The position numbers and the translations under genes are program-made. Below, piece by piece: positions 9,452-12,816 of a DNA stretch of 64,000 nt; within the stretch, counting starts at the first letter, position 1, and every line of letters begins with the position of its first letter. The notes under the pieces were generated by a model. The model did not search any database. It saw only the letters and a program-made list of their open reading frames with translations, and was not told where the DNA came from. Source of the DNA: a phage; the sequence record PZ445551.1; one strand, 5' to 3'.

Positions 9452-10579
9452 ATGAAATACACGATTTATGGTGATATTGTAAGTGTAAATAAAGATATGG
9501 GCGTGGAATCTAACTATCTTCCACCAGGATTCTATACTGTTAGTCGTGATCCCCTTGGCAATTATTTTTTAAGCCGTGGTAATCTGACAGGTGTACCGGA
9601 TGTTTTGTATGGTGAAACAGAAAAACGAGCAAATCACGTTATCCGTACATTCCATCGCCGGAGTGCACAAGGTAAAAACACAGGCTTGCTTCTGACAGGA
9701 ACTAAGGGCAGTGGTAAAACTATGTTAGCCAAACTCATTAGTCGTGACCTTGTAGAAGAAGGTATTCCAACTATTATGGTTACTCAAGCCTATAGTGATG
9801 CTAATTTCATTGAACTTATTAGCAAGATCACCGACAAAGCAGTGATTATTTTTGACGAGTTTGATAAAGTATATGAGAAGAAACAAGATCAAGAAGCACT
9901 TCTCACTTTGTTAGATGGTACTGGCAGTGGTAATAAACTGTTTATTCTGACTAAAAACAGTGGTTTTATCTCTGAATTCTTTTTAAATCGTCCTAGTCGT
10001 GTGTTTTATAATTTTAATTATGATAAAATCTCACTAGAAACTATGATTGACTATTTAGATAAAAACCTGGATAACAAAGCACACTTTGATAATTTCCAAA
10101 GACTTTGGGATGTAAGTTTAGAGTTGTCCTTTGATGTGATCCAAGGTATAGTAGAAGAACTTAATTTCTACCCTGATTTATCCTTTAAAGAATGTATCTC
10201 TATGATGGGCGTTTCTTTAGGTGGTGGTAATAAATGGGATATCAGCAGTGTTGTTATTAATGGGAAACTTCAGAAAGTTAGCTGGGTATCTAGTTGGCAT
10301 AACTTTACACCTGCAATCTTTTTAGGTGGCTCGTGCACACTAGACGTGTACTTGTCATCTCCAAGTGATGCAGACTCTAAAGAAGCCCTTGCTAATAGCT
10401 CTTACGTGGTTTTTGATGATGAAGGAGATGCTCGAATTCCATTGAATGCGACAAAAATGAAAGCAGATCTTATTACAGGCGGTAAAATCGTTGTGTTTAG
10501 TGATGATCCAGAAGATTCTTTCCGTATTGTTCTGGAACCAACTATCACCAATGGTGCAACTTTGGCAAGTGTGTTTTAA
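9452..10579 (+). CDS. AAA+ family ATPase
   Basis: Walker A GTKGSGKT, Walker B IIFDEFDK. Confidence 0.75.
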   Translation: MKYTIYGDIVSVNKDMGVESNYLPPGFYTVSRDPLGNYFLSRGNLTGVPDVLYGETEKRANHVIRTFHRRSAQGKNTGLLLTGTKGSGKTMLAKLISRDLVEEGIPTIMVTQAYSDANFIELISKITDKAVIIFDEFDKVYEKKQDQEALLTLLDGTGSGNKLFILTKNSGFISEFFLNRPSRVFYNFNYDKISLETMIDYLDKNLDNKAHFDNFQRLWDVSLELSFDVIQGIVEELNFYPDLSFKECISMMGVSLGGGNKWDISSVVINGKLQKVSWVSSWHNFTPAIFLGGSCTLDVYLSSPSDADSKEALANSSYVVFDDEGDARIPLNATKMKADLITGGKIVVFSDDPEDSFRIVLEPTITNGATLASVF

Positions 10580-10595
10580 GTAAGCCAGCAAATAA

Positions 10596-10618
10596 AAACC
10601 CGCTCCGGCGGGTTTTCT
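10596..10618 (+). terminator. rho-independent terminator
   Basis: Hairpin ACCCGCTCCGGCGGGT followed by TTTTCTTG. Confidence 0.6.
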
Positions 10619-10653
10619 TGTATTGATACCAGATTTAATAAGAGGAGTAATAG

Positions 10654-11826
10654 ATGACAGCACCAAAATCATGGGAACAATATAAAGAAGAATTAACACC
10701 CCTTGCTAAAAATCACAATATTCAAATCCTGGGTTATGTTGGTGAATGGAAAGGGAACAAGACTAAACTTAAGCTATCTTGCCCTAAACATGGAGAGTGG
10801 AACACCACGAACATTAATGATTTTAAGAAGGGACGTGGTTGTCCTATCTGTTCTGGTAAGAAGCCGTTAACATGGGAAACAGAATTGCCGATCTTGGAAG
10901 AGATAGCACAGAAGAGGGGGTATCAGGTGTTAGGGTACGTGGGAGAATGGAAAGGGAATAAAACAAAACTTGATTTGTTGTGTCATTGTGGTAATAAATG
11001 GGATACTACAAGTATTAACAATTTTAAACGTGGTAGCGGTTGTCCACAATGTAAGAGGGAGAGACAAACAATGTCCGACGATCAACATATTGCAGATTTC
11101 TTTTCTACAGGGGAATTTAAGGAAGGCACTATCTTCACCAATACAGGGAAACGTAACAAGCGTGATGCAGTATGGATGGTTGAGTGTCCTGTTTGCTCCC
11201 ATGATGAATATGTTCAAGCAGGTGTTTGTGATGGTAAATTTTACTCTGCAGGACATAACCTTAAACAAGGGTATATTCCGTGTCGTTGTGGGAACTATCA
11301 GTATACAGAAGACCAGATCACCTATAGGGTAAAAAAGGAAGTAGAAGGGAAAGGGTATGTCTGGGTAGATTGGATTACCAAACCCTCTTCTATAGGTAAG
11401 TTTAAATATCTTTGTCTTGTGCATGGTGAGCAGATAGGGAGTGCTCGTAATTTATTAAGCCTCGGTCAAGGTTGTCCACAGTGTGCTGGTCATAATCAAC
11501 AGCAATTATATATTAATATTGTTAAAGATAATGATATTATAGTTGCCCTTAAGTTTGGTATATCTAAAGATAGCGATAGACGATTAAACGGTCAAAATAG
11601 CCGTAATCTGTTTTTTATGGAGCGTATTTGTTTATATGATTTTAGCACAGTGAAACAATGTAGGGCTGCTGAAAGAGCTATAAAGAAAAAATTAAAAACT
11701 GGTATTTTAACGGCAAGAGAGTTGAAAGATGGTTATACAGAAACAGTAAGTGTTTCTGATTTGGAAAATCTTCAAAAAATTATTACACAATATGGTGGCA
11801 AATTAGTATACAGTAAGGAGATGTAA
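10654..11826 (+). CDS. zinc-ribbon repeat protein with C-terminal T5orf172/GIY-YIG-like domain (putative nuclease)
   Basis: Four repeats of a CxxC/H..GCPxC unit (e.g. GCPICSGKK, GCPQCKRER, GCPQCAGHN); C-terminus LYINIVKDNDIIVALKFGISKDSDRRL resembles T5orf172 as recalled. Confidence 0.55.
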   Translation: MTAPKSWEQYKEELTPLAKNHNIQILGYVGEWKGNKTKLKLSCPKHGEWNTTNINDFKKGRGCPICSGKKPLTWETELPILEEIAQKRGYQVLGYVGEWKGNKTKLDLLCHCGNKWDTTSINNFKRGSGCPQCKRERQTMSDDQHIADFFSTGEFKEGTIFTNTGKRNKRDAVWMVECPVCSHDEYVQAGVCDGKFYSAGHNLKQGYIPCRCGNYQYTEDQITYRVKKEVEGKGYVWVDWITKPSSIGKFKYLCLVHGEQIGSARNLLSLGQGCPQCAGHNQQQLYINIVKDNDIIVALKFGISKDSDRRLNGQNSRNLFFMERICLYDFSTVKQCRAAERAIKKKLKTGILTARELKDGYTETVSVSDLENLQKIITQYGGKLVYSKEM

Positions 11827-12378
11827 ATGCGGATTACTGATAAGTATGTGTTCTTCTTCTCGGCAAAAGATGAATTTAGCAACTGGTATCTATCATCTTT
11901 TATTGAACCTTTAGCTCCCAAGTATAATAATTCTATTACAAGTTCTGTTGAATTTACTTGTGTGGAACAATATATGATGTGGAGAAAAGCATGTTTGTTT
12001 TATGATTACAACATTGCATCTTCTATTTTAACCGGAGATCTAAGATATACAGGAGAAAAAGAACAAGCATATTATAAGCGACTAGGCAGATTAGTTAAAG
12101 ATTATGATGAAGATACCTGGACTTCTTTACGGGAGAAGATTGTCAAACGTGGTTTGTATCTTAAATACACACAAAATGAAGATCTCAAAAATAAACTTAT
12201 AGCCTACGCAGATAAGGAGTTCGTAGAGGCAAGCCCTTATGATTCTATTTATGGTATCAAAATGGGGATGTGGGATCGGGACGTGGAAAATAAGGATTGT
12301 TGGAAAGGACAAAATCTTTTAGGAAAATGGCATACAGACCTTGCTGTTTATCTAAAAGCACAATCTGATATTTCCTGA
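11827..12378 (+). CDS. NADAR (YbiA-like) domain protein
   Basis: DEFSNWYLSSF, FTCVEQYMMWRKA, and C-terminal D..WG....NLLGK match NADAR signature regions. Confidence 0.75.
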   Translation: MRITDKYVFFFSAKDEFSNWYLSSFIEPLAPKYNNSITSSVEFTCVEQYMMWRKACLFYDYNIASSILTGDLRYTGEKEQAYYKRLGRLVKDYDEDTWTSLREKIVKRGLYLKYTQNEDLKNKLIAYADKEFVEASPYDSIYGIKMGMWDRDVENKDCWKGQNLLGKWHTDLAVYLKAQSDIS

Positions 12379-12595
12379 TATTTTGAAAATTTTTATTTTT
12401 ATAAAAAGGGGTGTGGGTTTCATGTACGGAAATTCACCCTCTGCACAGTATATCCAGAGTAAGTAGTATTCTATACCCTGTTAATAAAGTATTTAATTTG
12501 TTTGTTGGACTATGGTATCTGATCTTTAAAAGGCATACTATCTCTTAACTACTACTTATAACAGAACAGTAAAATCATTTTTATAAAAAGTACAA

Positions 12596-12795
12596 AATTA
12601 TTTAAAGTTTTTACAGATTTTTGGGTACAAATTTTGAAAATGAAAAGTTCAAGTTTGGTCAAAATTATTTAAAGTTTTTGTACGTATTTCTATTCAGATT
12701 TTGAAAATGAAAACTTCAATTTTTTAAAAATTCCCCAGTTTATTTAAAGTTTTTTTGCCTTTTTCCGTAGAAAAATCAAAAATGAAAAGTTCAAT
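12596..12795. repeat. three tandem direct repeats of about 65 bp
   Basis: Each unit has TATTTAAAGTTTTT, a variable segment, then TTTTGAAAATGAAAAGTTCAA. Confidence 0.7.
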
Positions 12796-12816
12796 TTCGT
12801 GTTTTTATAGGTGTGT

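Follow-up and report, generated by a model that had tools for sequence, protein, structure and literature searches.

Phage ICP1 encodes five proteins combining CapR homology with a T5orf172 domain, Gp165 and Gp130 among them, which have been named putative homing endonucleases (Netter 2021; PMC8096241). The same study describes CapR, the repressor of the ICP1 capsid operon encoded by the satellite PLE, as being derived from a homing endonuclease gene (HEG), with its four cysteines required for DNA binding. The T5orf172 putative HEGs have been surveyed by Barth, Dunham and Seed (2023; PMC10448857), who found CapR/DUF723/DUF4397 zinc fingers in 200 of 229 of them, often with several per protein, and who described both repeat gain and loss and domain shuffling. 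Their genome set took in Muut and Inny, sister phages of the one examined here, for which Odn-like genes joining RepA_N to T5orf172 were reported. That survey also cites I-TevI as an autorepressor. For Odn (Gp88), the origin-directed nuclease of ICP1, the substitution E180A results in loss of cleavage both in vitro and in vivo (PMC8263062).

The phage DNA analysed here (sequence record PZ445551.1, 64,000 nucleotides, referred to as the window) possesses a gene for a protein of this type at 10654..11826 on the + strand, a complete ORF that runs from ATG to TAA and codes for 390 aa. PHROG 681 ('endonuclease') matches the protein at 1.3e-86 and relatives are present in 515 phage records, while no family for it was found in NCBIfam or PADLOC. 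Given this family, its 515 records and the 200 of 229 surveyed HEGs, the architecture of a zinc-finger array with a T5orf172 domain is already known and common. A preliminary description made from the sequence alone is confirmed as an observation and partly supported in its interpretation. It had placed the gene at 10654-11826, which are exactly the limits of the ORF, and read it as four tandem zinc-ribbon units followed by a T5orf172-like C-terminus; Pfam bears out the four modules and the C-terminal domain (PF21817, E-value 3.9e-43; PF10544, 20.6 bits). Its view that the architecture is unusual is refuted, this being the standard build of the T5orf172 putative homing endonucleases (Netter 2021; Barth 2023). 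Annotation as a CapR-type zinc-finger/T5orf172 endonuclease can be made with confidence, and GenBank and UniProt-style names already say so.

The protein is collinear with ICP1 Gp165 (28% identity over aa 1-319, E-value 5e-31). For the nuclease domain, identity is 41.6% with its counterpart in ICP1 Gp130/tcgB and 36% with a T5 protein of the same build. The Gp165 of ICP1 isolate 2019_Dha_007 (L013:1501-2619, 372 aa) ends inside the T5orf172 domain, stopping before the helix of the catalytic Glu and the DG-x-TET motif, and looks like a decayed or nuclease-dead HEG copy. Three records labelled 'Campylobacter phage', A150, B15 and A140 (MG065639.1, MG065650.1 and MG065674.1; hits H46, H53 and H118), match this E. 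coli phage group, A150 with 95% DNA identity, B15 with about 72% and A140 with a weak protein-level match to the endonuclease alone; the host labels of these records look doubtful.

The gene and its neighbours

The 4 kb surrounding the gene has 100% identity with Escherichia phage VivaForever (PP925843.1), a phi92-like myovirus of the genus Justusliebigvirus infecting E. coli, and the 390-aa protein is identical to its XNS40687.1, there annotated 'endonuclease'. Only one copy of the gene is present, in the window as in the whole genome, and neither tblastn nor custom HMMs of the nuclease domain and the zinc-finger module found paralogues in the 64 kb. Two signals precede it:

10595..10616, + strand: intrinsic-terminator hairpin, 9-bp stem followed by a U tract (fold z-score -3.5)
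10641..10647, + strand: ribosome-binding site AGAGGAG, read from the sequence, 6 nt 5' of the ATG

The terminator, the equivalent of which is annotated in Schickermooser, ends the upstream AAA-ATPase gene, with the endonuclease gene lying just downstream. The ribosome-binding site is free in the predicted fold, no hairpin occluding it being predicted. A promoter scan of the 74-nt spacer upstream of the endonuclease gene gave no convincing sigma-70 promoter.

The AAA-ATPase gene (9452-10579, + strand) codes for a protein that is 99.7-100% identical across the genus (dS 0.07-0.11, dN/dS ~0) and is under very strong constraint. Each genome has another region matching it as well, which suggests a paralogue. 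On the other side, a NADAR-domain gene (11827-12378, + strand) has its start codon directly after the endonuclease TAA. Its product matches PF08719 (E-value 2.5e-36) and the PADLOC candidate family PDC-M42C (E-value 1.8e-34), and related phages annotate the gene as 'YbiA-like N-glycosidase'; we take it to be a candidate counter-defence enzyme that could act against DNA ADP-ribosylation. The non-coding stretch 3' of this gene holds a 67-bp tandem repeat (12593-12723, two copies of 81% identity, with weaker copies across 12575-12797), which is annotated as 'repeat_region' in phage alia. ARAGORN identified no tRNA or tmRNA genes in the whole window (1-64000).

Domains of the protein

The coding region divides as follows:

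10654..10863, + strand: zinc-finger module 1, aa 1-70 (PF21817 46.8 bits; putative ligands C43, H46, C63 and C66)
10732..10770, + strand: 39-nt direct repeat, copy 1, with its partner 201 nt away
10864..11067, + strand: zinc-finger module 2, aa 71-138 (PF21817 61.0 bits; putative ligands C110, C112, C130 and C133)
10933..10971, + strand: 39-nt direct repeat, copy 2, 82% identical to copy 1
11068..11301, + strand: zinc-finger module 3, aa 139-216 (PF21817 52.6 bits; C178-x2-C181 ... C210-x-C212)
11302..11502, + strand: zinc-finger module 4, aa 217-283 (putative ligands C254, H257, C274 and C277)
11503..11823, + strand: T5orf172/GIY-YIG-like nuclease domain, aa 284-390 (PF10544 and domain model)

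PF21817, the CapR homology domain, matches the whole protein in four stretches with a total of 145.9 bits (E-value 3.9e-43), and these are overlapped by weaker Pfam matches to DUF4379 and DUF723. When the four segments were each scanned alone against the gathering score of 24.2 bits, module 4 fell below it with 21.1 bits, though its ligands are conserved. In the alignments each of the four modules has two Cys/His knuckles supplying four putative zinc ligands. Modules 1 and 4 share the spacing C-x2-H ... C-x2-C, while module 2 has C110-x-C112 ... C130-x2-C133. The ligands of module 1 are invariant or nearly so in the homologue alignment, and C110, C130 and C133 of module 2 are invariant among 57 homologues. 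Module 3 is 78 aa long and the most CapR-like of the four, with C192 also invariant. Modules 1 and 2 share 51% identity over 67 aa (E-value 8e-27) and module 4 matches these two with E-values of 8e-7 and 6e-5, a similarity far beyond chance. The repeat unit was originally given as approximately 45 residues; this describes the conserved core, but an N-terminal helix also belongs to each unit and brings the actual period to about 67 aa (201 nt). Likewise, the repeat motif proposed with it holds for modules 1 and 2 and loosely for module 4, but not for module 3, with its CxxC...CxC. A MAFFT alignment of the four modules had suggested module 3 to be permuted; this was dropped, as the Pfam coordinates give it as collinear, with a longer spacer.

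Structure prediction of the array had been proposed as a check. The AF2 model of the whole protein (mean pLDDT 89.4, pTM 0.43) shows in each unit a helix and then a small sheet on which the two knuckles sit, and predicts a string of beads, the domains being well defined with their mutual orientation undefined. Sequence searches of the PDB returned nothing, or zinc-ribbon matches at chance level only.

For the C-terminal domain, the expected T5orf172 profile match was found, with PF10544 scoring 20.6 bits in the whole protein and 22.8 bits (E-value 1.4e-4) with aa 281-390 alone. This is a marginal pass of the cut-off of 20 and covers profile positions 10-69 of 101. The related profile MUG113 is the sole other candidate, and 16 of 46 homologues also match PF10544 at an E-value of at most 0.01. 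Because the match is marginal, aa 281-390 were modelled alone from a 46-sequence alignment, giving a complete GIY-YIG-type alpha/beta fold (pLDDT 96.6, pTM 0.89). A Foldseek search of the PDB with the whole protein had shown nothing significant, with Slx1 and At-HIGLE matching weakly; it was uninformative because the multi-domain model has a pTM of only 0.43, a problem solved by modelling the domain alone. Predicted viral structures that match the domain carry the names 'CapR homology domain-containing protein', 'GIY-YIG domain-containing protein', 'Homing endonuclease' and 'Bacteriophage T5 Orf172 DNA-binding domain-containing protein'.

Across 57 homologues, the most distant with about 25% identity, nine residues of this domain do not vary, namely Y286, K300, G302, R310, Q314, E340, G360, E363 and T364. 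Alignment assigns Y286 as the conserved Tyr of strand 1, R310 as the catalytic-type Arg of helix 1 and E340, which aligns with Odn E180, as the catalytic-type Glu. E363, within the DG-x-TET motif, was considered as the equivalent of I-TevI E75 and rejected, as the Odn alignment places the essential Glu at E340; both are invariant. His and Tyr are both absent from the first helix of the domain, as reported for Odn.

These features bear on the possibility that the protein is a nuclease-dead, CapR-like DNA-binding repressor retaining a degenerate T5orf172 domain. Such a regulator would have precedents in CapR, itself a HEG-derived repressor (PMC8096241), and in the autorepression by I-TevI (cited in PMC10448857), and the weak Pfam score of the domain would fit it. 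The invariance of Y286, R310, E340 and E363, a nuclease-domain dN/dS of 0.13-0.30 and the completeness of the modelled fold all speak against degeneration, making this reading very unlikely.

Conservation of the locus and mosaicism of the array

The gene order ATPase, endonuclease, NADAR is kept in phages VivaForever, alia, PD06, phi92 and EmilieFrey. It is also kept in phAPEC8, Schickermooser and Ro121c4YLVW, all Phapecoctavirus phages, where a further two small genes are present. The gene is thereby at the same locus in all eight annotated regions inspected, across two genera. An IMG/VR scan with the flanking ATPase gave four loci, too few for a presence/absence survey, and identity-band counts were used instead. 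Over the phage collection, the flanking ATPase occurs at 99% identity or more in 56 records and the nuclease domain at 80% or more likewise in 56, these being counts compared as totals and not record by record. No empty ATPase/NADAR site was found in the 56 genomes of the genus by these counts or in the sampled Phapecoctavirus genomes, and the gene is apparently at the same locus in all 56.

A homing endonuclease gene that has become fixed in a population is expected to decay. The gene could nonetheless be an active, purely selfish free-standing HEG, cutting the ATPase/NADAR junction of genomes lacking it and being copied in by recombinational repair. This would agree with the designation of the family as putative HEGs in both published studies (PMC8096241; PMC10448857), with a nuclease domain which by homology and fold is joined to a DNA-binding domain, as in free-standing HEGs, with a gene standing free between two others behind a terminator and with its own ribosome-binding site, and with a sequence discontinuity centred on it. 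The sporadic presence and absence of a mobile HEG was not seen, as ATPase and nuclease-domain genomes are equal in number and every sampled Phapecoctavirus genome has a gene in that position too; in place of the expected decay, the gene is undamaged and its dN/dS lies well below 1, and the flanks are free of co-conversion tracts, the divergence being inside the gene. A purely selfish element is accordingly a possible but doubtful explanation. From these sequence comparisons, the gene appears to be a fixed resident of the Justusliebigvirus lineage, intact and under purifying selection.

Comparison within the genus gives identities of 98.9-100% for the ATPase and NADAR proteins and 92-98% for the nuclease domain. 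The array reaches only 60-84% and consists of three, four or five modules (proteins of 325, 390 and about 465 aa). Nucleotide identity is low between ~10,700 and ~11,460 and rises again where the nuclease domain begins. One IMG/VR locus (L005) is 98-100% identical otherwise and is missing exactly the interval between the two copies of the 39-nt repeat; it appears to have lost one module by recombination, and the direct repeats would be a substrate for the in-frame loss or gain of one module. Longer orthologues or other homologues of 486-669 aa, with five to six or more zinc-finger modules, are the Schickermooser protein (L001:5229-6689) and P0022, P0028, P0035 and P0060, with P0028 (669 aa) looking like two arrays in tandem.

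Synonymous divergence is higher in the array (dS 0.18-0.92) than in the flanks (0.07-0.15). The array has a dN/dS of 0.27-0.49, compared with 0.13-0.30 for the nuclease domain and 0.00-0.07 for the flanks. Positive selection was rejected as the cause of array divergence, since a dN/dS of less than 0.5 together with a strongly elevated dS points to imported alleles and not simply to fast evolution. Modules 3 and 4 of phi92, of the same genus, are 40% and 48% identical to those of this protein, while those of phAPEC8, of the other genus and with flanks of only ~62-65% identity, are 74% and 72% identical. By a coarse typing of modules, the same module strings are paired with different nuclease lineages. 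The array is a hypervariable mosaic shuffled across genera between almost invariant flanks, and this agrees with the domain shuffling of Barth et al. (PMC10448857).

This pattern may also be explained by a domesticated nuclease that benefits the phage, a retargetable weapon of the Odn kind against co-infecting phages or satellites, with shuffling tracking its targets. In two genera the gene is fixed at a single locus, every sampled genome has it intact, and purifying selection acts on both domains. Deep array lineages persist among near-identical genomes, with elevated dS and modules shared across genera; Odn (PMC8263062) and the RepA_N-T5orf172 genes of Inny and Muut (PMC10448857) provide precedents. 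Against this, the analysis found no target and the protein has no PADLOC match. Two pattern scans of limited sensitivity, aimed at possible satellite-borne copies lacking the nuclease, found no relatives of the array in 185,579 representative bacterial and archaeal genomes, and array mosaicism can arise neutrally by repeat recombination. Domestication is for these reasons put forward tentatively, and is rated about equal to the purely selfish element.

A more specific form of it, a selectively maintained and naturally retargetable zinc-finger nuclease whose modules are traded between Justusliebigvirus and Phapecoctavirus to shift its specificity against co-infecting phages or an E. coli satellite, is rather unlikely. 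If true, array alleles such as A-A-B-C, D-D-B-C, A-B-C, A-A-A-B-C and others would have distinct, predictable targets and amount to a modular recognition code.

Proposed function and comparison with known systems

Taking together the domain identities, the fold, the conserved residues, the homology to Gp165 and Gp130, the conservation of the locus and the mosaic hypervariability, the protein is probably (a probability of about 0.8) a site-specific DNA endonuclease of the T5orf172 putative homing family, within the GIY-YIG superfamily, with an array rebuilt by recombination. The four independently folded CapR-type modules, which we infer to bind zinc, would jointly read an extended DNA target, and the C-terminal T5orf172 domain would cut nearby by means of Tyr286, Arg310, Glu340 and the DG-x-TET motif with Glu363. 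Repeated rebuilding of the array through the gain, loss and swapping of modules, even across genera, would most likely have the consequence that alleles differ in target specificity. In a mixed infection, such an enzyme may cut related phage genomes or other mobile elements having a sensitive site, with recombinational repair then favouring the genome that carries the gene.

The protein is ordinary for its family and matters little as it stands. What is added here is the apparent fixation at the same locus across a genus and the hypervariable mosaic of three, four or five modules, and it is this pairing of a fixed, intact gene and a variable array with flanking genes of 99-100% identity throughout 56 phage genomes which may be of interest to specialists. 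There are many natural alleles in easily grown E. coli phages, including the BASEL members EmilieFrey and PaulScherrer, and the locus is therefore convenient for two questions, namely whether homing by T5orf172 enzymes is real and how DNA specificity arises from CapR modules in tandem.

Two of the comparisons are with GIY-YIG enzymes outside the T5orf172 family. In I-TevI and the GIY-YIG homing endonucleases of T4-like phages the nuclease domain is N-terminal, whereas in this protein it is C-terminal; the I-TevI type of layout (N-terminal GIY-YIG, linker, minor-groove helix and helix-turn-helix) was not found, there being no helix-turn-helix, and neither His nor Tyr lies in the first helix of the catalytic domain. 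The resemblance is at the level of the fold only. Slx1 and At-HIGLE, structure-specific GIY-YIG nucleases with only 14-16% identity, are repair enzymes of eukaryotes that have a RING/PHD partner domain; their biology is unrelated.

Odn shares the T5orf172 domain, with Glu-dependent DNA cleavage having been shown for it (PMC8263062), but binds DNA through a RepA_N domain taken from its satellite target, whereas this protein would do so through its putative zinc fingers. No Pfam match to RepA_N was found in the protein, and in this respect it is unlike an Odn-type anti-satellite nuclease. With PLE CapR, after which PF21817 is named, it shares the zinc-finger DNA-binding module, and module 3 in particular has the CxxC...CxC of CapR, the cysteines of which are needed there for DNA binding (PMC8096241). 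CapR is a transcriptional repressor without a nuclease domain, however, while this protein has four modules and an intact nuclease domain.

Close counterparts are ICP1 Gp165, Gp130/tcgB, Gp174, Gp121 and Gp53, all with the same build of N-terminal tandem CapR-type modules and a C-terminal T5orf172 domain, and the array seems to gain and lose modules by recombination between them in the way described for gp174. The differences lie in genomic context. There is a single copy in this phage compared to at least five paralogues in ICP1, and the gene, unlike the ICP1 T5orf172 HEGs, is not beside terminase, capsid or nrd genes. It is also fixed at its locus in every genome sampled, whereas several of the ICP1 HEGs are variably present or frameshifted.
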